A stretch of DNA of 64,000 nucleotides from Clostridia bacterium (GCA_017521295.1 JAFXDF010000036.1:1275-65274); one strand, 5' to 3'; shown: positions 33,247-58,179, numbered from the stretch's first letter. Made by a program: numbers and translations. Notes: generated from the sequence alone by a model not told the origin.

Positions 33247-34428
33247 TCAGGACTGTGCCTTCATGATGACCTTCAGCCGTTCTACCAGTTGACCGACCTT
33301 CAGCTCTTCCAGGTCGATGACGGCGATCCCCAGCTGGGCCGCCCGGTGCCGTGCGGCGGCGTTGCAGGGCTCGGTGGTGACAATGGCGGCTTTTGCGCCC
33401 TTTCCGCCGAAACGGTCCCGCAGAATGGACAGCTCATTGAGGGCCTCGGTCTTGATATCGGTGGCCTTGCAGCTGATAAACAGCGGAATGACGCCCCGGG
33501 CAGCCATCACGTCGATCTCATTGAGAACGCTGCCGTGGCCCAGGGTTTCATCCCAGCGGACAACGGCGCTGCTGATCACGTCGTTGAAAATGCCGGCGTC
33601 GATACAGGCCTTGTAAACGTACAGCTCCAGCACGCTGCCCACATCCCGCAGCCACCACCGGATATTGGTATCCCGGAAGCGGAAGGCCACCGACTGGCCG
33701 GCCACGATCTCCAGATCCTGCAGAAAACCGATCCGTGCCAGGGCTTCCAGGGCAGCTTCGTTGGCGGAGTTCCGGGAGCCGTGGTCGCCCTTCACCGTGT
33801 ATTTTCCCTGAACGGACAGCGAAGGCGTCTGGCCGTATTCCCCGGGAGACACCCGCTGAATGTAAGAAATAATGTCCGTCCAATCCCGGCGAAACCGCAG
33901 GAAACAGGAGAAGAACGGGTCAAAATCTTTCAGATATTTGGCCAGAATGTCATTGTCCACCCGGCCGGGGAGCAGCGTTCCGCCTGCCATCAGGAAAAAG
34001 TCCTCCACCGAATAGGAGAGGGTGCATTCCAGATTGTTGGCAAAATCGGCGCCGCTGATGTCATAAAAACTGTTCTTTTTCCGGGAGTAGGTAAAGGCGG
34101 GGGCGCCTGTTTTTGCCGAGAACATACCCGCCGCAAACAGCGCGGCATCGCTGCCGCCGGTAACGTCCACCGCGCAGTCCGGGTATTTTTCGCCGATGGT
34201 CAGCAGCTGGCGGAGAATACGGTCGGCTTTGAACAGGCTAGCCTCCTGGAACAGCACCTCCGGCTCCCAGCCCCGGCGCTTGAAAAAGGCCCTCATTTGC
34301 TCCTGCCGCTTCCGGTTTTGAGCAATTTCATTGGGGCAAAGATAAATGATGCGCTTGGGCCGGAACATTTCCGGGGCCAGAATATTTTCGATGGCGCGCT
34401 CATCATACAGCTCGATCAATGTATCCAT
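33247..34428 (-). CDS. Card1/Can2-like CARF-domain protein with DUF1887-type PD-(D/E)xK nuclease domain
   Basis: 393 aa. N-terminal Rossmann/CARF-like motif VDVTGGSD. C-terminal GSVLELYVYK and E-I-D-x12-S-C-K restriction-endonuclease-like motif. Confidence 0.65.
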   Translation of the reverse strand: MDTLIELYDERAIENILAPEMFRPKRIIYLCPNEIAQNRKRQEQMRAFFKRRGWEPEVLFQEASLFKADRILRQLLTIGEKYPDCAVDVTGGSDAALFAAGMFSAKTGAPAFTYSRKKNSFYDISGADFANNLECTLSYSVEDFFLMAGGTLLPGRVDNDILAKYLKDFDPFFSCFLRFRRDWTDIISYIQRVSPGEYGQTPSLSVQGKYTVKGDHGSRNSANEAALEALARIGFLQDLEIVAGQSVAFRFRDTNIRWWLRDVGSVLELYVYKACIDAGIFNDVISSAVVRWDETLGHGSVLNEIDVMAARGVIPLFISCKATDIKTEALNELSILRDRFGGKGAKAAIVTTEPCNAAARHRAAQLGIAVIDLEELKVGQLVERLKVIMKAQS

Positions 34429-34506: not shown

Positions 34507-34569
34507 GAAAGGCCGCCGGTTCGACGGCAAAAAAAGAAAGCACCCGCTTAGCATTAAGCGAGTGCGTTC
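34507..34569. repeat. 63-bp direct repeat, copy 1 (copy of the tRNA-Arg 3' flank and terminator)
   Basis: Identical to 34783-34845 except for one mismatch (C34517 vs T34793). Confidence 0.85.
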
Positions 34570-34708
34570 CTGTGCATCAGCCGTCCCTCACCCAAACCGA
34601 AGCCCAGCGCAGCGGGTTCGGTTTGGAAAGGAGGAGCGATGAAGTGAATGAGAGATGGCGTTTCAACATGAAACGCCGTCGCGAAGGATACGGAGTACGC
34701 GACGACGC

Positions 34709-34731
34709 GGTACGCCCGACTGGAGTCGAAC
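34709..34731 (-). pseudogene. 23-nt fragment of the tRNA-Arg 3' end (T-loop to CC)
   Basis: GGTACGCCCGACTGGAGTCGAAC is identical to 34847-34869 and 58104-58126. The flanks do not form a tRNA. Confidence 0.7.
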
Positions 34732-34782
34732 GGGCGGAGTCGTAGGCTGCGCCTGCGCTCCGCTTGCGGACTGGATCGGATA

Positions 34783-34845
34783 GAAAGGCCGCTGGTTCGA
34801 CGGCAAAAAAAGAAAGCACCCGCTTAGCATTAAGCGAGTGCGTTC
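34783..34845. repeat. 63-bp direct repeat, copy 2 (native 3' flank of the split tRNA-Arg, including its terminator hairpin)
   Basis: Abuts the tRNA 3' end. Contains a GCACCCGCTTAGCATTAAGCGAGTGC hairpin with a T-run on the minus strand. Bases 34784-34801 are a perfect inverted copy of T-arm bases 34863-34880. Confidence 0.8.
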
Positions 34846-34891
34846 TGGTACGCCCGACTGGAGTCGAACCAGCGGCCTTTAGAGTCGGAGT
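34846..34891 (-). pseudogene. tRNA-Arg(CCG) 3' half (anticodon loop to CCA), displaced by the element
   Basis: Minus-strand reading is ACTCCGAC-TCTAA-AGGCC-GCTGG-TTCGACT-CCAGT-CGGGCGT-A-CCA. It complements the 5' half at 58320-58358. Confidence 0.8.
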
Positions 34892-35018
34892 TATCAGGCG
34901 GGAAACGAAAAAGCCTGTATTTGCAAAGCTTTCGTCAGTTGTGCACAGATTTGAAGATGATAACGAGAAACCCGCAAACCGTTGCAGCGCAACAGTTTGC
35001 GGGTGTTTTGCTGTTTTT

Positions 35019-35043
35019 AAAAAATAGTAGTCAGATAGTAGTC
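35019..35043. repeat. arm-type-like repeat near attL (AAAAAATAGTAGTCAGATAGTAGTC)
   Basis: Contains ATAGTAGTC twice at 11-bp spacing. 23/25 identical to 58207-58231, in the same orientation. Confidence 0.6.
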
Positions 35044-35126
35044 TCAATACTGACAATCAGGTTTAAATTACCATAAAAATCACATCACAAGCTACTTGTC
35101 AACTTCTGAGCGATATATGCTTATTT

Positions 35127-35726
35127 CTATAGGGTCTTGGGTGGATCATCTAAAAGGGTAAATAACTTCTTGTTATATGTATTGGAGTCGACAACAGATA
35201 CAGTGCAATTTAACCATCTTAGCTTTTTCCTCAGACTCACCTGCAAAGACTCCATTTGCATCTTCTTAGTGCGTGTTCTTCCTCCAAAATCACCTTCAAG
35301 AAGTAGAATAATTAGCAGATTCTTCTCTTTTGTTGAAATTCCTTTGTCAACAAGCATATTGGCATAAGGAATAATTGAATTTGCAGCGCCGTTTTCGACA
35401 CCTGTTGTAACAGCACCAATCAAACAAGCTATCGTCATAGCTACCTTTTGAGCGATTTCAATATCAAGGCTGTCACGATCATGGCTATCTTCAGGAGCTA
35501 AATGAGCTTTCTTATTATCAGGATCAATACGCCAACGATTATCTGCTTCATGTCCTTTGCAGTTCTTTATCTCAAGTAACACCAATTGACCTTGATCCTT
35601 ATAGAGGATATCTACGCCTTTAGCTGCCGGAAATGAAACGAAGCACTTCCGATAATATGGTGTATCGTCAAATTTTATTGCGGATCCTTGTGAAAAACAA
35701 AAACCAAAGCCACTTTCCTTAATCAT
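35127..35726 (-). CDS. hypothetical protein with a PD-(D/E)xK-like motif
   Basis: 199 aa. GVDILYKD-x9-LLEIKNCK gives D-x11-E-x-K. Start overlaps the stop of the upstream ATPase ORF. AT-rich. Confidence 0.45.
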   Translation of the reverse strand: MIKESGFGFCFSQGSAIKFDDTPYYRKCFVSFPAAKGVDILYKDQGQLVLLEIKNCKGHEADNRWRIDPDNKKAHLAPEDSHDRDSLDIEIAQKVAMTIACLIGAVTTGVENGAANSIIPYANMLVDKGISTKEKNLLIILLLEGDFGGRTRTKKMQMESLQVSLRKKLRWLNCTVSVVDSNTYNKKLFTLLDDPPKTL

Positions 35727-36606
35727 TGTAAATCAAACGTTGTTCTCTGTCGTATAATGAATCAAACTCTTCCATAACAGCATTATGCTGCAAATCCTGG
35801 ATATCTTTTGCACACTCAAACCCTATTTTGCCATCTTCTTTATACAGTGACAAAAATCTAATGTCCAACTGATCGGGATTGCTTTTAGGATAGGCAGTTA
35901 ACATGTTGAAACTCTGCTGGACAAAATAGTCATGAGTCGTCACGAAAACCTGAACTCCCATTTTGGCAAGTTCCACAATGGCCTTAGTCACATGCTGAAT
36001 CATCTTAGGATTCATGTTTGTTTCAGGCTCGTCCCAGAATAATACAGAGTTCTTGCTAAGACTTCCAGATGAGATTAAATAGATGATGGTTGCCAATTTG
36101 CGATAACCCTCAGAAACCAAGCCCATCTCGAATTCGCCTTCTCCAGGCACTTTTAAATAGAATTTTTTTTCGCGCTGAACAATACTACCTTCAAGAATGT
36201 TTTCAAAACTCGAAAGAACCTGATTCTGCTCGGTCGTGTTTGAGCCACGTTTTAATGGTTTATCTAACAATTTTGTTAAATCATAATATGTCTCTTCAAA
36301 ATCTAAATGATATTCTTCATATAAACTTTGAAAATGTTCCGTAGCAGAAATCATTTCTTTTGGGGGCAAGTAGATAGGATCAAAAGATTGATTAGGAGCA
36401 ATCTTTTTTACTTCCAATTCCACATGGCGTCCACTGCGAGTGCCAAATGCCACGGAAATTTCATCACCTTTTTCTAATTTCATACAAAGATTGGCTCGGT
36501 TGCTTCCTTGTTTGCGGCTGACAAGACGACCTATTTTCATGTCATCTGGTCTGAAAACTCCTGTGATCTTTTCGACAAAAGCAACCTCAAGCTGATCCTT
36601 TGTCAT
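35719..36606 (-). CDS. ABC/AAA_21-type ATPase, C-terminal part (signature-like motif, Walker B, D-loop, H-loop)
   Basis: 295 aa. SEGYRKL signature-like motif, Walker B VLFWDEPETNMNP, and TTHD. No Walker A in this ORF. Confidence 0.7.
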   Translation of the reverse strand: MTKDQLEVAFVEKITGVFRPDDMKIGRLVSRKQGSNRANLCMKLEKGDEISVAFGTRSGRHVELEVKKIAPNQSFDPIYLPPKEMISATEHFQSLYEEYHLDFEETYYDLTKLLDKPLKRGSNTTEQNQVLSSFENILEGSIVQREKKFYLKVPGEGEFEMGLVSEGYRKLATIIYLISSGSLSKNSVLFWDEPETNMNPKMIQHVTKAIVELAKMGVQVFVTTHDYFVQQSFNMLTAYPKSNPDQLDIRFLSLYKEDGKIGFECAKDIQDLQHNAVMEEFDSLYDREQRLIYND

Positions 36607-36776
36607 TTCATTAATATTTTTTTGCTATAAGGCTTTAGCAAGGAATATAGGCATTTTAGAAGGGTTGTCTTTCCGGTGCTGTTTTCTCCAAAAATTACAT
36701 TAATATTTGGAGACCAATCCATGATCATATCATCAAACAGCATGAAATCCTTCAGATGAGTCTGCAGAATTTTCAT
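36603..36776 (-). CDS. ABC/AAA_21-type ATPase, N-terminal Walker A fragment (split gene)
   Basis: MKILQTHLKDF...NVIFGENSTGKTTLLK. The stop TGA overlaps the ATG of the next ORF (ATGA). An A7 run lies 11-17 nt upstream of the junction. An alternative TTG start exists at 36860. Confidence 0.6.
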   Translation of the reverse strand: MKILQTHLKDFMLFDDMIMDWSPNINVIFGENSTGKTTLLKCLYSLLKPYSKKILMK

Positions 36777-36914
36777 TGAATGAACCAGCCTTTCACTTTG
36801 AAATAGAAGATACCTATTTTTCATTTTAACATAGATTAATATAGGCAATAAACGTGACAATTACCTTACTTTTTCTTGTATTGTTTTGGAAGGTAATTAA
36901 ATCTATTATATTTA

Positions 36915-36943
36915 ATTATGTCATCATAGCAATAATGTGTCAA
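36915..36943 (-). promoter_or_regulatory. candidate promoter for the ATPase/nuclease operon
   Basis: Minus-strand TTGACA (36938-36943), 17 nt, CATAAT (36915-36920). Confidence 0.35.
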
Positions 36944-37188
36944 GCCGATTTTGCTTCAGCACACCATCTCATTTTTATAAATTGTGCATAATTTATTTAA
37001 GGGTAACTTTTAATCATAGTTGCAAAATCTGATATAAAGGAAAGCTATAATATGATTTTATAATTATTGTGTCCAATGTATTGACTTTTTACAGGTGCAG
37101 TGCGTTCAAGCAAATAGATTGAATACTTATTTGCAAAATCATTTTGCCGCAGTATAATAAAGAAAATGCAATAAAGTGGAGGCTGGGT

Positions 37189-38376
37189 ATGAGTAAAACA
37201 CGCATCATAAATCAGTATCTTCTTAGCGCAAAAAGTAAAGGCCTCAAACGCCTCTATAGTAATACCGAACAGGCTTATGTTGATCTATGCGCTGTACTCA
37301 AGAAAAAGTATTCAAAATGCGAAGAAGTAGCTGAAGGTTCTGCTTTGAAAATTGAACATACTTTTCACAACGAAACAAAAAACTGTTATTTTGTTTATAA
37401 GAAGTCTAGCTCAATAGCAAGACACTATGTATCTGTTTTCACCTTAGAGACCGGAACTGCAGGCTTAGAGCTTTTGGAAGAGGTTTGCAATACTGTTTTT
37501 AAGACAGATAGTGTGCTGTCAAATTATTATGATATCATTGTTTTGAGAGACGGTATTTCCGAAAAATATAGCAATAAAATATTTCCAAAGTTTAACGAAT
37601 ATGAGCGAAAACTGAAAGCGCTTATGTTCGCTGTCTATACTCAGGAGTATGGTTCTGCGTACATTCAAGTGGTCCAGTCGCATGTCGAGAACTCCATAAA
37701 AGGTGCGCCTAAAAACAAAAAAGAACTTAGCCGTGTTCAAGAAATGTTTTTTGCGCTTACCCTGGGAGATATCCAAAATGTCTTATTTACGCCATATTGG
37801 TCCCCAGCTGATGAAAACTATTATTATGCATTGCTAAACGATAGCTGTGACTATTCCAAGTGTAGCAATGAGGAAATACGACAATTATTTTCAACACTTA
37901 AGCCGAAGTGCGATTGGGATAAATTCTTTGCAAAACTGTTTCGTGAGGAAAACATGCCCGATATAATTGATGAGCTCCGAAATTATCGAAACATAGTTGC
38001 CCATTGCAAGTCTTTTTCAACGGAACAATATATTGCTAGCAGAGAACTTCTGAAAAAAGCTATAAAGCAACTTGATAGAGCATTGAACAGCATTGCACCT
38101 AGGTACCATAAATTGCTGGACAATATAGAAGAAGATGCGCCTTGTGGCAGTGTTTCAATGCTTGGGCAAATATCTCAAGACAAAAGCTCTCATAATTCTG
38201 CGAGATTTGAAGCAATTGCCAGAAGTATTGCAGAGGCAGTCGCAATGTCCAGTAACCATTCCTCTATTGATACAGATATCATTGAACCCTTACGATACAT
38301 ACCACCCAAGCATATAGGAAAAGCGATAAAGCAGCGCGTAAAACCTCATTACCACAGGAAAAGCCTTAAAAAGTAA
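37189..38376 (+). CDS. HEPN-domain protein (Swt1/Apea-like R-x4-H motif)
   Basis: Start at MSKTRI (GTGGAGG RBS, TATAAT at 37153-37158). Motif ELRNYRNIVAHCK with the upstream helix FNEYERKLKALMF. AT-rich. Confidence 0.55.
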   Translation: MSKTRIINQYLLSAKSKGLKRLYSNTEQAYVDLCAVLKKKYSKCEEVAEGSALKIEHTFHNETKNCYFVYKKSSSIARHYVSVFTLETGTAGLELLEEVCNTVFKTDSVLSNYYDIIVLRDGISEKYSNKIFPKFNEYERKLKALMFAVYTQEYGSAYIQVVQSHVENSIKGAPKNKKELSRVQEMFFALTLGDIQNVLFTPYWSPADENYYYALLNDSCDYSKCSNEEIRQLFSTLKPKCDWDKFFAKLFREENMPDIIDELRNYRNIVAHCKSFSTEQYIASRELLKKAIKQLDRALNSIAPRYHKLLDNIEEDAPCGSVSMLGQISQDKSSHNSARFEAIARSIAEAVAMSSNHSSIDTDIIEPLRYIPPKHIGKAIKQRVKPHYHRKSLKK

Positions 38377-38404
38377 TGCAGACAGATTGTCAGGAGCAAG
38401 TACC

Positions 38405-39103
38405 ATGACTTACCGTATTGCCATTGTTGACGACAACCAAGCAGACCGGGAGTTCCTCCACGCTCAGGCGCAGAGCTGGGCGACGCAGAACGACAGCACC
38501 CTGCAGGTCGAACTGTTCGCCTCTGCTGAGGAGTTTCTGTTTCACTATGCCGAGCACAAGGACTATGATATCCTGTTGTTGGACATTGAGATGCCCGGCA
38601 TGGACGGGGTTACCATGGCCCGACGCATCCGGAAAGAAAATGAAACCTTGCAGATCGTGTTCATCACCGGTTACTCCGAATACATCTCCGAGGGCTACGA
38701 GGTAGCGGCGCTCCATTACCTGATGAAACCGGTGAACACCGATAAACTGCATCAGGTGCTGGATCGTGCAGCGGACAAGCTCCAGCGAAACGAACGCTGT
38801 CTGACACTGGAGTTATCCGGCGAAGTGGTGCGCCTGCCCCTGTACCAGATCCGCTGGGCCGAGGTGCGGCAGAACTATCTGACCATCCACGCCAAGGCCG
38901 ATTATACCGTGAAAATGACCCTTTCTGAGTTGGAAAACCGTCTGGATGACCGCTTCTTCCGTGCGGGTCGGTCGTTTATCATCAATCTGACCGAGGTGCG
39001 CTCGGTGACCCGACAGGAGGTTCGCCTGTCCGACGGCACAGTCATCCCGCTGCCCCGAGGCCAGTATGAGCCGTTGAACAGAGCTATTATTTCTCGTGGT
39101 TAG
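38405..39103 (+). CDS. LytTR-family two-component response regulator
   Basis: REC domain (IVDDN, LLLDIEMPGMDG) plus a C-terminal LytTR domain (FFRAGRSFIINL). Confidence 0.85.
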   Translation: MTYRIAIVDDNQADREFLHAQAQSWATQNDSTLQVELFASAEEFLFHYAEHKDYDILLLDIEMPGMDGVTMARRIRKENETLQIVFITGYSEYISEGYEVAALHYLMKPVNTDKLHQVLDRAADKLQRNERCLTLELSGEVVRLPLYQIRWAEVRQNYLTIHAKADYTVKMTLSELENRLDDRFFRAGRSFIINLTEVRSVTRQEVRLSDGTVIPLPRGQYEPLNRAIISRG

Positions 39104-39112
39104 GAGGCTTTT

Positions 39113-39775
39113 ATGAGTATCTTTTCCAAACTCATCGACAAGCGCATCGCGGCCTATCAGCGGGAACTCATCGAGACCCATTACGCCGAGGTGGAGAATA
39201 TGTACCGCCAGATCCGCGGCTGGCGGCATGACTATCGCAACCACATCCAGACCATGAAGGTCCACGCTGCCAACGGCGACATGGAGTCCATCCGCCGCTA
39301 TCTGGACGCACTGGACACCGACCTGAACACGGTGGACACCGTCATCAAAACGGGCAATGCCATGGCTGATGCTATCCTCAACTCCAAGATCTCCCTTGCC
39401 AAAGCCCGCGGCATCGCCGTTCATGCCGACGCCCATATCCCGTTGGCGCTGACCACCTCTGAATTGGATCTGTGCGTCATTCTGGGCAACCTGTTCGACA
39501 ACGCCATCGAGGCCAGCTTGGCTTTGCCGGAGGAGCAGCGGCTGATCCGGGTTTATATGGATATGAAAGGCACACAGCTGTACATCTCCTTTACCAACTT
39601 CACCGCCTCCCAAAAGCAGGCCAAGATCTCCGGGCGGTTCCGCACCACCAAGGGCGAGGGCCACGGCTTCGGTCTGGTGCGCATCGACTCCATTGTGGAG
39701 CGTCTGAACGGTTATCTGAGCCGCAACAGTGAGGACGGCGCTTTCACCACAGAGATTCTTTTGCCACAATCATAG
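39113..39775 (+). CDS. GHKL histidine kinase lacking a transmembrane sensor domain (HPK10/AgrC-type catalytic core only)
   Basis: 220 aa. H-box RHDYRNHIQ, N-box LGNLFDNAIEA, and G-box GEGHGFGL. No hydrophobic N-terminal region. Confidence 0.75.
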   Translation: MSIFSKLIDKRIAAYQRELIETHYAEVENMYRQIRGWRHDYRNHIQTMKVHAANGDMESIRRYLDALDTDLNTVDTVIKTGNAMADAILNSKISLAKARGIAVHADAHIPLALTTSELDLCVILGNLFDNAIEASLALPEEQRLIRVYMDMKGTQLYISFTNFTASQKQAKISGRFRTTKGEGHGFGLVRIDSIVERLNGYLSRNSEDGAFTTEILLPQS

Positions 39776-39830
39776 TGAGTGAGGTACATAGTTTGCAGGT
39801 ATGCCACCATTGTGAAAGGAGCCAGAACAT

Positions 39831-40673
39831 ATGAGTTATCCCGATTATTTATATCATTATACCAGTATCGAGACTTTGGCTTTAATTCTGAACAATCGGA
39901 CAATCTGTTTTAATAACCTGCTTTATGTTGACGATATGGAGGAAGCGGAAACCAACGATCTCGGTTTGTTTGGTAAATACGTGAATATAAGTTGTTGGAC
40001 GGAGACCGATGAGGAATCGATAGCATTATGGAATATGTATACTCCAGATATGCATGGTGTGAGGATCAAGATGCCCGTTTTTCCGTTTAAGAAATATCAT
40101 TACAAAACGGGTCAGTTCCATTTTAAAGAGGATGTTGATACTTATATTAACCAGGAAAAACTGTATACGGAGAACAAAGGCGCTATAATACCAAATCTAC
40201 CTATATTATTTTCTGTTGAGTATACCGATGACACGAGTTTATTGTTTCCTACGATCAGGACGAGCAATTCGCCTGATTCGGTACAACAATTTCTTGAGGC
40301 AAAGAGTTTAGCCGACATACCTAAGCCTATAAATATCTCATATTCTCTACGTGAGTTAGGGAGGTATAAGCGATCGGTCTGGTCTTTCCAAAAAGAGTGG
40401 AGATATCTGGTTTTTTCATCTCCGATGGGGTTGCGCGACTGCGAACCTTTCTCTTTAGAGAAACAACAAGAGATTATAAGAAGATTGGAAAACCGTGAAC
40501 AGAAGGCCCCCTATGAGAGATTTTTCCTCGAAATAGATAATGAGGCATTTATGAAAATGGAAATCCTGTTAGGGCCTAAAATGACAGAAGCTGAAAAGAT
40601 TTTGGTTGTTGCATTGCTTGAAAAACATGGACTTGGGGATCGCTGGAAAGAAAGTGCATTGCGTATTAGATAG
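39831..40673 (+). CDS. DUF2971-family protein
   Basis: 280 aa with N-terminal YLYHYTSIETLALILNN...VDDMEE motif. AAAGGAG RBS. Confidence 0.6.
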   Translation: MSYPDYLYHYTSIETLALILNNRTICFNNLLYVDDMEEAETNDLGLFGKYVNISCWTETDEESIALWNMYTPDMHGVRIKMPVFPFKKYHYKTGQFHFKEDVDTYINQEKLYTENKGAIIPNLPILFSVEYTDDTSLLFPTIRTSNSPDSVQQFLEAKSLADIPKPINISYSLRELGRYKRSVWSFQKEWRYLVFSSPMGLRDCEPFSLEKQQEIIRRLENREQKAPYERFFLEIDNEAFMKMEILLGPKMTEAEKILVVALLEKHGLGDRWKESALRIR

Positions 40674-40707
40674 TAAAAATACTATCTAAACACAGAACAT
40701 TTCCTTG

Positions 40708-40774
40708 AAATATGCAATTCGTCCCCCACAGACGACGATTCGTCCCCGAAATGAATTTTCGGGGACTTTTTATG
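40708..40774 (+). repeat. 67-bp perfect direct repeat, copy A (tandem ATTCGTCCCC motifs plus terminator hairpin)
   Basis: Identical to 42829-42895. ATTCGTCCCC occurs at 40717 and 40738 (21-bp phasing). Hairpin GTCCCCGAAA-TGAAT-TTTCGGGGAC plus T5 at 40742-40771. Confidence 0.9.
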
Positions 40775-40986
40775 CTAAGATATAACAATTAAAATCCAAA
40801 TGAAAACAGCGTTTGTGATATCAGTGGCTACGTAGCAAATGAAACATTTTCAGCAATTAAAAATGACTTAAGGTTGCATCATCGTGTGTTTGGTGGGCTG
40901 CGGTAGAAGAGTAAAGTGAATCACTGGACAAATGTTTTACGAGCAGGTATGATCAAACTACCCACATAGCAGAAAGATGGATTTCC

Positions 40987-41649
40987 TTGATAAAAGCTGT
41001 GATTTTTGATGCGTATGGTACCTTGATCTCCACCGGCACTGGATCGCTGGATGCGACACAAAAGATATTGAATCTGTACAAATCGTCCATTCCTGCAAAA
41101 ACATTCTATGGGGACTGGAAAAAATACCATCGGAAACATATCGATGGGTTGTCGCGTTTTGTACCGGAAGAAATGATTTTCCTGTGGGATTTGGAGGAAC
41201 TATACGAACAATATGGGCTACCGGGAAACGCGGCCGAGGATGTGCAGATCATGCTGGACACCCTGGGCAATCGCACTGCATTTCAAGAAAGCAAAGCGGT
41301 GGTGGAACAGCTGAAGCGTTTGGTCACCGTATGCATTGGCTCTACCACCGACACAGAACCGTTTATGCGGGATCTGACCCGGAGCGGCATCGTGGTGGAT
41401 CATATCTTTACTTCAGAGGAGCTACAGGCATACAAGCCACAAAAAGCCTTTTACGAAAAGATCCTTGCAGCTCTGTCCCTGCCACCGGAGGAAGTCCTTT
41501 TTGTGGGAGATTCCCTGACTGACGATGTCTATGGTCCCCGGCAGGTGGGAATGAAAACCTGCTGGGTAAACCGCAAAAAGGAAATTGCCCCGATACCGCC
41601 GCCGGATTATGAGGTGTCCAATCTGACCGAGTTGCTGACTGTTTTATAG
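40987..41649 (+). CDS. HAD-superfamily hydrolase (haloacid dehalogenase type II-like)
   Basis: 220 aa with a TTG start. Motif I is FDAYGTL and motif IV is VGDSLTDD. Confidence 0.75.
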   Translation: MIKAVIFDAYGTLISTGTGSLDATQKILNLYKSSIPAKTFYGDWKKYHRKHIDGLSRFVPEEMIFLWDLEELYEQYGLPGNAAEDVQIMLDTLGNRTAFQESKAVVEQLKRLVTVCIGSTTDTEPFMRDLTRSGIVVDHIFTSEELQAYKPQKAFYEKILAALSLPPEEVLFVGDSLTDDVYGPRQVGMKTCWVNRKKEIAPIPPPDYEVSNLTELLTVL

Positions 41650-41676
41650 GATCATCGAAAGTTGGAGGATTGAAAT

Positions 41677-42168
41677 ATGAGCACCCGCATCGAAAAGACC
41701 AACTATTATCTGGATATTGCAGAAGTTGTAGCTGCCCGTTGCACCTGCTTACGGAGGCATTACGGTGCAGTTATCGTAAAGAATGACGAAATTATTTCCA
41801 CTGGCTATGTGGGTGCGCCCCGAGGCCGAGCCAACTGCATCGACCTGGGTTTCTGCCGTCGGGAGAAGCTGGGCATTGCCCGAGGTGAGCGGTACGAGCT
41901 GTGTCGCAGCGTTCATGCAGAGGCCAACGCCATCATCAGCGCTTCCCGCCGAGATATGATGGATAGTACGCTGTATCTGGTTGGTAAGGAAGCCGGTACT
42001 GGCGAGTATGTGAAGGATGCCAACAGTTGTGCTATGTGCAAGCGAATGATCATCAATGCAGGCATCAGCCGGGTGGTTATCCGTGATGATAAGGAAAACT
42101 GGCGTGAAATTACCGTTTCTGATTGGGTCGAGAATGATGACTCCATGACTGATGTGATGGGTTATTGA
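41677..42168 (+). CDS. dCMP deaminase (ComEB/cytidine-deoxycytidylate deaminase family)
   Basis: 163 aa with zinc motifs HAEANAI and CAMCKRMI. Confidence 0.85.
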   Translation: MSTRIEKTNYYLDIAEVVAARCTCLRRHYGAVIVKNDEIISTGYVGAPRGRANCIDLGFCRREKLGIARGERYELCRSVHAEANAIISASRRDMMDSTLYLVGKEAGTGEYVKDANSCAMCKRMIINAGISRVVIRDDKENWREITVSDWVENDDSMTDVMGY

Positions 42169-42191
42169 ACTTGATATAAAGAGGAAAGCGT

Positions 42192-42794
42192 ATGAAGAAA
42201 TCGTACATAAAGATAATAGTCAGCATCATCGTTTTCACATTGATTGTAGTTTTATTAGTGCCTGATTTCTGGGCAAAGCATCGTGCTTCCCGGTATCTGG
42301 AAGAAAAATATGGTGATGCCATAGTAGTGGAGAATGTAGAGTTTGATAAGGTGCAAGCCAATCTTTTTCACCAGGAGTATTCGGTCAGGGCATACTATGA
42401 AGGCGTGAATTTTAGAGTCAGCAACGGTTCTGACACCTATACAGAAAAGTATCATGAGTGGTGGTATGGTGAACTGCTTTTTGTCAATGGTATGGAAAGC
42501 TTGATCAAAGGTGCATCTGTCACTATAATGGATCATCTTACTGGCACCGCCGTATTGGATAAAACAGATCTATTATTCTATATGGATGTGGAATTCCGAG
42601 ATACCTTCCCTTCGGAAGAGGCATTTGCAGATGGCGTTCAGAAGGTTTTAGAACACTTGGATTTCGTAAATCTTTCGAAATGTGATACGCTGATCGCTTA
42701 TGGATTTATTGATGGACAGCATGTATGCTGCAATGTTTCACCCATGCAATCTCCAGATAGGTCGGAAATCCTCATGAACATTAAGCCTTTTTGA
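42192..42794 (+). CDS. hypothetical membrane-anchored protein
   Basis: 200 aa with a single N-terminal TM helix. No recognisable motif. Confidence 0.5.
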   Translation: MKKSYIKIIVSIIVFTLIVVLLVPDFWAKHRASRYLEEKYGDAIVVENVEFDKVQANLFHQEYSVRAYYEGVNFRVSNGSDTYTEKYHEWWYGELLFVNGMESLIKGASVTIMDHLTGTAVLDKTDLLFYMDVEFRDTFPSEEAFADGVQKVLEHLDFVNLSKCDTLIAYGFIDGQHVCCNVSPMQSPDRSEILMNIKPF

Positions 42795-42828
42795 TGTTTC
42801 AAAGAGTTTGTCTGCGAAAGTGTACAGC

Positions 42829-42895
42829 AAATATGCAATTCGTCCCCCACAGACGACGATTCGTCCCCGAAATGAATTTTCGGGGACTTTTTATG
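42829..42895 (+). repeat. 67-bp perfect direct repeat, copy B
   Basis: Identical to 40708-40774. Ends 29 nt before the NUDIX start codon. Confidence 0.9.
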
Positions 42896-42923
42896 TTAGG
42901 ATAGGCATGAGGTGAGAGAACAT

Positions 42924-48203: not shown

Positions 48204-48857
48204 ATGAAAGGTTTTGTCAGAAAGTACAAGCGCGAAGTAATCGTGGGAGTTGTTGTATCTCTTATCACGGCTGCAATTATCAAACTGGGGGATTGGATCA
48301 TTACGGTGACTCCTGCGTTTGGACAGACGCTTGTCAGCACAATACAAAATATTATTTATATGACGGCAGCTGCACAGACGGCAACGACTGTCGATAGACT
48401 TCTTTTTGGAAGCTTATCAGGATTATTTATGGGTAGTTTTCTGGCATTGATCGGCATGGGATTCAAAGAATGGTTTCGTGCATTAAAACTTGAGCGTATG
48501 ATAAATAAACGTTCTACAGCAACAGGGCATCGTGAACGAAAGCCAGAGAAGCCAGCAAGCAAAGAAAGTGAATCAGCGGTAAAAAACTTGATAGCAGAAG
48601 CAAAGCGCCTTGGTTATAAGGCTATTGGGCTAACTGCTTTGCTGGTAGTTATTTACCTGTTTTCCCAAATAACAATTGTGAAACCTGCACAGTTGTGGTC
48701 TATCTTCCAAAATGATATGACTATGATTGCGCCCTATGTAGATAGCCATGAGCTTCTACACTTGAAATCAGAATGGGTGTGCATGCAAAGCAAGGAAGAT
48801 TATGTGACGCTTTATCAGTATATCGATGGCGTCAAGCAAACGAATAACTTGCCATAA
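48204..48857 (+). CDS. hypothetical membrane protein
   Basis: 217 aa, 3-4 predicted TM helices, no recognisable motif. Confidence 0.5.
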   Translation: MKGFVRKYKREVIVGVVVSLITAAIIKLGDWIITVTPAFGQTLVSTIQNIIYMTAAAQTATTVDRLLFGSLSGLFMGSFLALIGMGFKEWFRALKLERMINKRSTATGHRERKPEKPASKESESAVKNLIAEAKRLGYKAIGLTALLVVIYLFSQITIVKPAQLWSIFQNDMTMIAPYVDSHELLHLKSEWVCMQSKEDYVTLYQYIDGVKQTNNLP

Positions 48858-48877
48858 AAAACAAAGGAGGTGCCTAT

Positions 48878-49672
48878 ATGAACGACTTGGAAAATAAAAT
48901 GATTGAAGCGCTGGTTGATGTGGGGAAAGATGTAACAAGTGATCTGGTAAGGCCTACGTCCAAAAGCGTGGGCGATAACATTGGACGCCTTGTAGATGGA
49001 GTAATGGGTTGGCTTGGATACTGGGGCGAAAAGCAAAAGGTCAAACAAGCTGTGTATCTAGAGGATTATAAGAGGAAAATAACGGAAAAGATTCTTGGAA
49101 TCCCAGAGCAAAAACTAATTGAACCCCCTATACGCCTTGTTGGACCAGCGATTGAAGCAAGCAAGTTTTTTATTGAGGAAGAGTATTGCAGGGATATGTT
49201 TGCAAAATTGATTGCCTCGGCATGCGACTCTTCCAAGGTGAACTCGGTGCATCCTGCATTCCCAGAAATAATTAAACAGTTAACCCCTTTGGATGCGAGG
49301 TTTTTACAACTGTTTAAGGAGCGGAGCACCTATCCGGCAGTAGAATTGACAGCTGTGCATCCGGATGAAATAGTATCACCGTTTCCTCATATGCTGTTCG
49401 ACTTCAAGGATAGCAATGCATCCTTCAACGCTGGTGAGCAGTTAGAATTGACAAAAACAATAGAAAACCTAATTCGATTCGGGCTCTTGATCAAGAATAC
49501 AGCGGTGCTTGAACTCAACTATAATTATGATAGTTTTAAGAACCACTGGTTCTATAAAGGCATTACCCCGACGCTTGATGAAGGCAGTAAATTACGGATC
49601 ACCAAATATCGAGTTGAACTCACATTGCTGGGACAGGACTTTCTGAAAACTTGCTTGCCCGAACAGGAGTGA
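48878..49672 (+). CDS. Abi-alpha (DUF4393) family protein
   Basis: 264 aa with family-typical stretches FAKLIASACD....VHPAFPEIIKQLTPLDARFLQL. GGAGGT RBS. Confidence 0.6.
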   Translation: MNDLENKMIEALVDVGKDVTSDLVRPTSKSVGDNIGRLVDGVMGWLGYWGEKQKVKQAVYLEDYKRKITEKILGIPEQKLIEPPIRLVGPAIEASKFFIEEEYCRDMFAKLIASACDSSKVNSVHPAFPEIIKQLTPLDARFLQLFKERSTYPAVELTAVHPDEIVSPFPHMLFDFKDSNASFNAGEQLELTKTIENLIRFGLLIKNTAVLELNYNYDSFKNHWFYKGITPTLDEGSKLRITKYRVELTLLGQDFLKTCLPEQE

Positions 49673-58102: not shown

Positions 58103-58179
58103 TGGTACGCCCGACTGGAGTCGAACCAGCGGCCTACAGAGTCGGAGTCTGTCACTCTATCCAACTGAGCTACGGGCGC
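58103..58179 (-). tRNA. tRNA-Arg (anticodon CCG), intact, element-borne
   Basis: Hand-folded 77-nt cloverleaf: GCGCCCG-TA-GCTC..GAGT-G-ACAGA-CTCCGAC-TCTGT-AGGCC-GCTGG-TTCGACT-CCAGT-CGGGCGT-A-CCA. Confidence 0.85.

Follow-up and report, generated by a model that had tools for sequence, protein, structure and literature searches.

Among the described anti-phage systems that set an ATP-binding cassette (ABC) ATPase beside a nuclease effector, the one most similar to the locus studied here is HEC-02 (Hma-embedded candidate 02), which is included in PADLOC-DB. The preprint on this system describes an ABC ATPase with a NERD-like PD-(D/E)xK partner, and reports orders-of-magnitude lower plaquing of at least two phages with a representative, both genes being required (Payne et al., bioRxiv 10.1101/2024.01.29.577857). 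We analysed a 64,000-nucleotide (nt) stretch of DNA from a Clostridia bacterium (GCA_017521295.1, JAFXDF010000036.1:1275-65274; hereafter "the window"), in which an original prediction, made from the sequence without database searches, had described positions 35127-38376 as a candidate defence cassette encoding a split ATPase, a small nuclease-like protein and a divergently transcribed HEPN protein. Our analysis indicates that this region very probably holds two independent pieces of cargo at the left attachment (attL) end of a mobile element: an HEC-02 operon with a frameshifted ATPase gene, and an unrelated single-gene HEPN module.

The HEC-02 gene pair and its frameshifted ATPase gene

We recovered the four predicted open reading frames (ORFs), three on the minus strand (35127-35726, 35719-36606 and 36603-36860) and one on the plus strand (37144/37189-38376). 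The two ATPase ORFs, which as read encode 295 amino acids (aa; 35719-36606) and 85 aa (36603-36860), both matched the HEC-02A profile of PADLOC-DB (PDLC04213), the longer at profile positions 52-332 (E = 1.8e-93) and the shorter, N-terminal one at positions 1-53 (E = 4.5e-17). The 199-aa product of the third minus-strand ORF matched HEC-02B (PDLC04228; E = 1e-73). In Pfam, the 199-aa protein was assigned to DUF6661 (E = 5.9e-49) and the ATPase to AAA_21/AAA_15. The original prediction had likened the pair to Septu, PARIS and the split-OLD class, but the corresponding profiles matched the 295-aa piece far more weakly (AriA, 1.5e-15; Old, 1.4e-7; PtuA, 9e-5; also PD-T4-4_A, 1.3e-17), with PtuA matching the N-terminal piece at 6e-10. 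We rejected membership of any of these three systems, since the match of the ATPase to HEC-02A is stronger by tens of orders of magnitude, and its partner matches only HEC-02B/DUF6661. As a separate observation on the database, the A and B labels of HEC-02 are swapped in two PADLOC-DB profiles: PDLC04145, labelled HEC-02A, matches the DUF6661 protein (1.7e-11), and PDLC04146, labelled HEC-02B, matches the ATPase (6.3e-70).

To collect HEC-02 loci, one genome per species was scanned for DUF6661 relatives. The resulting 80 loci are mostly from Clostridia (Lachnospiraceae, Faecalibacterium, Acutalibacteraceae), with distant members in Methylobacter, Leptospiraceae, Chitinophagaceae and large sulfur bacteria. 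A homologous ATPase gene is positioned directly upstream on the same strand in most of these loci, as one colinear piece in 71, and the pair includes an intact ATPase of ~350 aa in about 70 of the 80. In the window, too, the ATPase gene comes first on the same strand, and its end overlaps the start of the HEC-02B gene by 8 nt. All of the ATPase motifs that had been read from the sequence are present (Walker A, GENSTGKTT; signature-like, SEGYRK; Walker B, LFWDEPE; H-loop, TH), and Walker A, Walker B, the D-loop region and the H-loop TH are at least 90% conserved among the 71 one-piece ATPases. Based on the matches to HEC-02A, HEC-02B and DUF6661, and on the conserved arrangement of the pair, we conclude that the ATPase and the 199-aa protein are, as judged by sequence, a member of HEC-02, an already named and tested anti-phage system. 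A pair that had been thought unassignable to any named system, and hence a supposed new defence system, is thereby removed from the list of novelties; HEC-02 is named, searchable with PADLOC and experimentally supported. Synonymous divergence (dS) from the nearest HEC-02 relative is saturated, such that selection on the HEC-02 genes is not measurable.

The nuclease signature of the 199-aa protein had been given as D-x11-E-x-K. The residues proved to be D39, E52 and K54, which are invariant in 32 homologues; the spacing, however, is D-x12-E-x-K. In an AlphaFold2 model of HEC-02B (predicted local distance difference test score (pLDDT) of 89), D39 sits just before a strand at residues 40-43 and E52/K54 lie in the next strand (47-57), a placement that, in the model, is as expected of a PD-(D/E)xK core. 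The HEC-02B alignment profile had 0 matches among PDB sequences, the protein had no match to the Pfam NERD family, and DUF6661 was not found in PHROGs. Thus, HEC-02B is a putative nuclease, the fold being assigned mainly from the published description and the invariant motif.

Loss of a single base from a poly-A run splits the ATPase gene. Homology places the start of the gene at ATG 36776, giving an N-terminal piece of 57 aa; the frame is broken after residue 53, and the premature TGA of this piece overlaps the ATG of the 295-aa piece (ATGA). Restoring one A yields a 352-aa ATPase that aligns without gaps across the break with the 71 one-piece homologues; over the break, the window reads KPYSKKNINEMTKDQLE, as compared with KPIGRKNISLMTQEQIE in one of these loci (L032). 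The nearest relative (L158) has no A-run at the break site, where it reads AGCCGCAAAACC, and its intact 352-aa ATPase is 83.8% identical to the repaired ATPase over 352 aa, with 0 gaps. The split ATPase gene noticed in the original prediction, and its overlap with the 199-aa gene, are real features, the split being due to the frameshift at A7. No further decay is visible in the HEC-02 genes, and the HEC-02B gene is intact, so the lesion looks recent. A few other members of the HEC-02 family are also broken (L035, L069). In the tested system both genes were required intact, whereas here the ATPase is divided into pieces of 57 and 295 aa. Since a full-length ATPase is missing, the HEC-02 copy as encoded is most likely inactive.

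Homopolymer runs are a classic source of insertion and deletion errors, and the frameshift might be an error of sequencing or assembly, with the ATPase intact in the organism. However, six other metagenome contigs hold the locus at 99.8-100% identity, and the four of these that cover the break site (L001-L004) all have A7, in assemblies from different samples and accession series (ENA and Logan). Moreover, a run of seven bases is short for a systematic error. With the A7 shared by these four further assemblies, we regard an isolated assembly error as very improbable.

We also considered whether the HEC-02 copy is still functional, either by -1 ribosomal or transcriptional slippage on A7, which could be low-level or phase-variable, or by co-translation of the 57- and 295-aa pieces through the ATGA and their reassembly. 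Such function would fit with the position of the break in a homopolymer, where a -1 shift on AAA AAA A restores the frame, with the overlap between the stop codon of the first piece and the ATG of the second, with the absence of decay in the conserved ATPase motifs and in the downstream HEC-02B gene, and with the recurrence of the A7 allele in several samples. Nevertheless, neither the A-run nor the split is conserved: the nearest relative lacks both, and in most of the 80 loci the ATPase is encoded in one piece. There is therefore no sign of a programmed event, and programmed frameshifting as a conserved feature was rejected because relatives lack the A-run. The A7 copies are 99.8-100% identical to one another, which leaves no time for decay and gives no evidence of selection; the cut falls right after the P-loop helix of the ABC fold; and other family members (L035, L069) are visibly degraded as well. 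We consider a functional copy unlikely.

The preferred interpretation remains that of an HEC-02 operon disabled by a frameshift. By analogy with other ABC-ATPase defence pairs, HEC-02A would be an infection sensor or regulator, and the NERD-like PD-(D/E)xK protein HEC-02B would cut nucleic acid once licensed by it; this copy would at best depend on rare slippage or on reassembly of the two ATPase fragments. The window thus provides a natural frameshift allele in which the nuclease gene is intact and its ATPase partner is broken. An intact nuclease gene beside a broken ATPase gene hints that HEC-02B may be harmless on its own, with the ATPase serving to activate the nuclease and not to hold it in check. 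Separately, we noted a second, longer homopolymer within the ATPase C-terminal piece, an in-frame A8 at 36163-36170 (-). Because of this A8 in addition to the A7, the AT-rich cassette has more than one slippage-prone site.

The HEPN gene and its independence from HEC-02

The plus-strand ORF is open from TTG 37144 (410 aa), but a GGAGG sequence 7-11 nt before ATG 37189 indicates a protein of 395 aa. The original prediction had noted a Swt1/Apea-like HEPN motif in this protein. In 38 family sequences, both residues of the R-x4-H motif (R267 and H272) are invariant, and N268 shows at least 90% conservation; the Pfam family HEPN_Swt1 (PF18731) matches the window protein with 28.6-28.7 bits, marginally over the gathering threshold of 27.5. 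The same profile matches 34 of 38 relatives, at best with E = 1.6e-7. A second conserved block, comprising S124, Y127, P133 and E139-R140, lies in the first long helix. An AlphaFold2 model, in which residues 1-300 mostly have pLDDT >90, consists of an alpha/beta domain (1-121), a helical domain (122-302) and a disordered C-terminal tail. When this model was compared with PDB using Foldseek, only the N-terminal domain gave matches, and these were weak, to KA1/AMPK-alpha C-terminal domains (E ~0.01; target-normalised template modelling (TM) score ~0.6).

Relatives of the HEPN protein are numerous. A word-index search found 5, and a HMMER search over 1.84 billion representatives found 476 at E <= 1e-3, these members being clusters at 50% identity and typically ~400 aa in length. 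The window protein had no match in PADLOC, NCBIfam or PHROGs, relatives were absent from a scan of viral contigs, and the family profile matched PDB sequences only through coiled-coil noise from the tail. In a distant member (P0005, 36% identity; L159 1827-3670, L160 and L161), two further genes lie downstream of the HEPN gene at spacings of 3 nt and 8 nt; their products, of 362 and 248 aa, have no family match and gave no PADLOC match. This arrangement suggests that some HEPN subfamilies, unlike the window's copy, have partner genes.

Under the original prediction, the ATPase, its 199-aa partner and the HEPN protein might together make up a single, undescribed defence system of three components, as could be expected from genes that are adjacent, have a similar GC content (0.36-0.38) and diverge from an AT-rich spacer with promoter-like sites on both strands. 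The promoter-like hexamers do face both ways, although the spacer measures 412 bp rather than the 330 bp given previously; Rfam identified only the two tRNAs in the window, and no known RNA in the divergent spacer. If the three genes formed one system, they would be expected to occur together. However, tblastn detected no HEPN relative in any of the 80 HEC-02 loci (0/80), and neither HEC-02A nor HEC-02B was found in any of 64 HEPN-family loci (0/64) from a metagenome scan with a narrower family alignment. We found the three genes together only in near-identical copies of the window's element.

Two natural swaps separate the genes further. Firstly, a sister element (L162/L163) matches the window at 34709-35043 (90%) and 37099-38916 (91.6%), with unrelated sequence in between; it lacks HEC-02 and has a gene for a 244-aa protein in the same slot (L162 464-1198 (-); L163 356-1090 (-)), but retains the HEPN gene. 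This alternative cargo protein (GC 0.36) had no Pfam or PADLOC match. Because the sister element swaps exactly this segment, HEC-02 can be described as a 2,055-bp cassette (35044-37098) in a variable slot. Thus, the element has a clean cargo slot beside attL, occupied by HEC-02 here and by an unrelated gene in the sister at exactly the same site. Secondly, an unrelated element (L007-L010), whose content includes a NikA-like protein, a relaxase, DUF3846, an amidoligase and HTH_17, shares with the window only positions 37106-38393 (95% identity), corresponding to the HEPN gene together with the 83 bp that precede it and the 17 bp that follow it. The shared upstream piece includes the TTTGCA-17-TATAAT promoter-like site.

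Based on the lack of co-occurrence in both directions and on these two swaps, we conclude that the HEPN gene stands apart from HEC-02 and is mobile in its own right, and is not a third component of that system. Given also that HEC-02 worked as a two-gene system when it was tested (bioRxiv 10.1101/2024.01.29.577857), a three-component system is extremely unlikely. The HEPN-family loci have no recurrent neighbour of their own: the largest cluster of neighbouring genes, encoding a serine recombinase, was present in 6 of 64 loci, and Pfam matches for 150 neighbour proteins were heterogeneous (recombinases, integrases, methylases, ResIII, Schlafen/AlbA_2, HNH). We detected no MNT or other recurrent antitoxin gene among these 150 neighbours.

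The ratio of nonsynonymous to synonymous substitution rates (dN/dS) is 0.13-0.23 for the HEPN gene and 0.05-0.07 for the adjacent response regulator gene. The HEPN gene is under purifying selection and evolves faster than the response regulator gene; this selection, together with the invariant R267 and H272, marks it as a working gene. We infer that its product is a stand-alone RNase-type toxin or defence effector that would act alone, and whose N-terminal domain may sense a trigger. A more specific proposal, which we put forward tentatively and regard as possible rather than probable, is that the uncatalogued family, in which a KA1-like alpha/beta sensor domain precedes the Swt1-like HEPN domain, provides anti-phage defence or abortive infection through an RNase encoded by one gene, and that promoter and gene travel as a 1.3-kb cassette among the mobilizable elements of gut Clostridia. 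Screens for defence genes could reasonably include this stand-alone HEPN family as a candidate.

Several observations weigh against the interpretation of the region as a disabled HEC-02 operon beside an independent HEPN effector. With regard to the predicted folds, Foldseek comparison of the HEC-02B model with PDB and BFVD gave no match with E <0.03; the local matches below significance were enriched in Hjc resolvases, T7 endonuclease I-like proteins and restriction endonucleases. Likewise, Foldseek comparison of the HEPN model with PDB returned no HEPN structure, and the Pfam match of this protein is marginal. With regard to activity, the window proteins match Clostridia-type profiles, and the anti-phage activity of the Clostridia subfamily would be extrapolated from the representative tested in the published work. 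The ATGA overlap between the ATPase pieces, along with their undecayed motifs, may leave room for residual expression. Lastly, the HEPN protein might work with the LytTR response regulator and histidine kinase encoded downstream, for example as a regulated RNase or toxin in that operon. The regulator gene starts 29 nt after the HEPN stop codon on the same strand, with no terminator-like site in between, and this order and 29-nt spacing are kept in L162/L163 and in L164, where the HEPN proteins are 70-92% identical to that of the window. By contrast, the 95%-identical copy in L007-L010 has no such neighbour, the similarity ending 17 nt past the stop codon; no cluster of LytTR or kinase genes recurs among the 64 family loci; and GC content jumps from 0.38 to 0.56 at the junction. 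We consider a functional link to the two-component genes quite improbable, and favour the HEPN gene as a single-gene module.

The mobile element and its other cargo

A 46-bp sequence corresponding to the 3' end of tRNA-Arg is present as a direct repeat at 34846-34891 and 58103-58148 (95.7% identity), the latter copy being part of an intact tRNA-Arg gene (58103-58179). These attachment (att) repeats delimit an element of ~23.2 kb (34892-58102). Its tRNA end encodes a NikA-like protein, a relaxase, two tyrosine integrases and a Fic protein, and its interior encodes Abi_alpha, ABC transporters, NUDIX, dCMP deaminase, HAD hydrolase and DUF2971 proteins, and the LytTR response regulator with its histidine kinase. 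Since the att repeats bound a relaxase, a NikA-like protein and integrases, we conclude that the ~23.2-kb unit is an integrative mobilizable element in tRNA-Arg, with the HEC-02 and HEPN genes as attL-proximal cargo (Table 1). The block at 35-38 kb has a GC content of 0.35-0.38, the minimum of the window, as compared with ~0.60 in the chromosomal flank. It lies just inside the 46-bp repeat, as had been claimed, and the original prediction had correctly recognised a defence-type ATPase, a PD-(D/E)xK-like partner and a HEPN protein in horizontally acquired, AT-rich cargo. Contigs L003-L006 break at 34974-34981, that is, at the terminator-like hairpin downstream of the HEC-02 operon.

Table 1. 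Coordinates (window positions) of features at the attL end of the element
Feature	Position	Strand	Remarks
attL: 46-bp copy of tRNA-Arg(CCG) 3' end	34846..34891	-	repeat of 58103-58148 within intact tRNA gene
Terminator-like hairpin, 16-bp stem, downstream of HEC-02 operon	34970..35004	-	in backbone common to sister element
HEC-02 cassette, 2,055 bp, GC 0.36	35044..37098	.	segment replaced by a different 244-aa gene in sister element
HEC-02B, 199-aa DUF6661/NERD-like putative PD-(D/E)xK protein, intact	35127..35726	-	DUF6661 5.9e-49; PDLC04228 1e-73
HEC-02A C-terminal 295-aa piece (signature, Walker B, D-loop, H-loop)	35719..36606	-	PDLC04213 positions 52-332; AAA_21, AAA_15
HEC-02A N-terminal 57-aa piece (Walker A GENSTGKTT)	36603..36776	-	PDLC04213 positions 1-53; 57-aa gene called in L001/L002
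A7 run, one-base deletion site splitting HEC-02A	36617..36623	-	eighth A restores 352-aa ORF
Promoter-like site, HEC-02 operon: TTGACA-17-CATAAT plus TG extension, 11/12	36915..36943	-	consensus match only
HEPN module, ~1.3 kb, GC 0.38, gene plus own promoter-like site	37099..38393	+	37106-38393 common to unrelated element; kept from 37099 in HEC-02-free sisters
Promoter-like site, HEPN gene: TTTGCA-17-TATAAT, 10/12	37130..37158	+	conserved in L162 and L007
395-aa predicted stand-alone Swt1-like HEPN protein	37189..38376	+	HEPN_Swt1; R267-x4-H272

The attachment site itself has a layered structure. Tandem att remnants occupy 34507-34891, where a second, 23-bp copy of the tRNA-Arg 3' end is present at 34709-34731, and a 63-bp direct repeat (34507-34569 and 34783-34845, 98%) adjoins the tRNA-derived copies. 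These tandem remnants suggest successive integrations at tRNA-Arg, or an earlier, decayed element at the same site.

Within the element, a 75-nt direct repeat (40708-40782 and 42829-42903, 97%), which includes a terminator-like hairpin, lies on either side of a 2.1-kb block with a HAD hydrolase gene, a dCMP deaminase gene and a 200-aa ORF. One of the metagenome contigs (L001), which is otherwise 99.8% identical to the window, departs from it at 39769 and has one copy of the 75-nt repeat followed by a 67%-identical ABC-transporter gene. The cargo of the element thus varies in a second region, at 39770-42903 in the window, where the 2.1-kb block lies, and at 1-1173 in L001. Next to the end of the histidine kinase gene, a low-GC gene at 39831-40673 (+) encodes a 280-aa DUF2971 protein (Pfam 1.5e-6, with a weak match to PADLOC PDC-S31) and may be further defence-type cargo. 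Another low-GC patch, at 48204-49672 (+), encodes an Abi_alpha protein (Pfam 8e-44; PADLOC candidate PDC-S47, 1.2e-42), preceded by a 217-aa ORF with no family match. On the chromosomal side, just outside attL, a gene at 33247-34428 (-) encodes a 393-aa CARF and PD-(D/E)xK protein of the Card1/Can2 type, which matches PADLOC CARF4--CARF_PDDEXK (1e-45) and Pfam Card1_endonuc (4e-6). Proteins of this type are cyclic-oligoadenylate-activated effectors of type III CRISPR (clustered regularly interspaced short palindromic repeats) systems.

Comparison with known systems

The ATPase-nuclease pair being already known, the uncharacterised HEPN family is the only partly new item of the region. It resembles the Swt1-like HEPN family (PF18731) in its R-x4-H motif with the RN...H signature, in its predicted helical domain and in the profile matches of 34 of 38 family members, but differs in having an extra N-terminal alpha/beta domain and a disordered tail, and in the marginal strength of its matches. 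With HEPN-MNT and other HEPN toxin-antitoxin pairs, and with HEC-08, it has in common a predicted HEPN RNase on mobile DNA. Unlike HEPN-MNT, the window's HEPN gene is without an MNT or other recurrent partner gene, and its product had no match at E <= 1 to the HEC-08 or Abi-type HEPN profiles of PADLOC.

The operon on the opposite strand is similar to PARIS (AriA/AriB), Septu (PtuA/PtuB), Gabija and class-2 OLD in that an ABC/SMC-like ATPase is encoded next to a nuclease effector, with weak similarity between the ATPase profiles. It differs from PARIS, Septu and OLD in its effector, which is a DUF6661/NERD-like, putative PD-(D/E)xK protein and not a TOPRIM/DUF4435 or HNH protein. With HEC-02, in contrast, the operon shares both protein families by profile, the order and strand of the genes, their overlap, the ATPase motifs and the (D/E)xK signature. 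Three features set the window copy apart from HEC-02 as described: its ATPase gene is split by a one-base deletion; it is not embedded in an Hma system but occupies a cargo slot of a mobilizable element integrated in a tRNA gene; and it belongs to a Clostridia subfamily that shares ~25-35% identity with the members of proteobacterial type recovered by the same scan.

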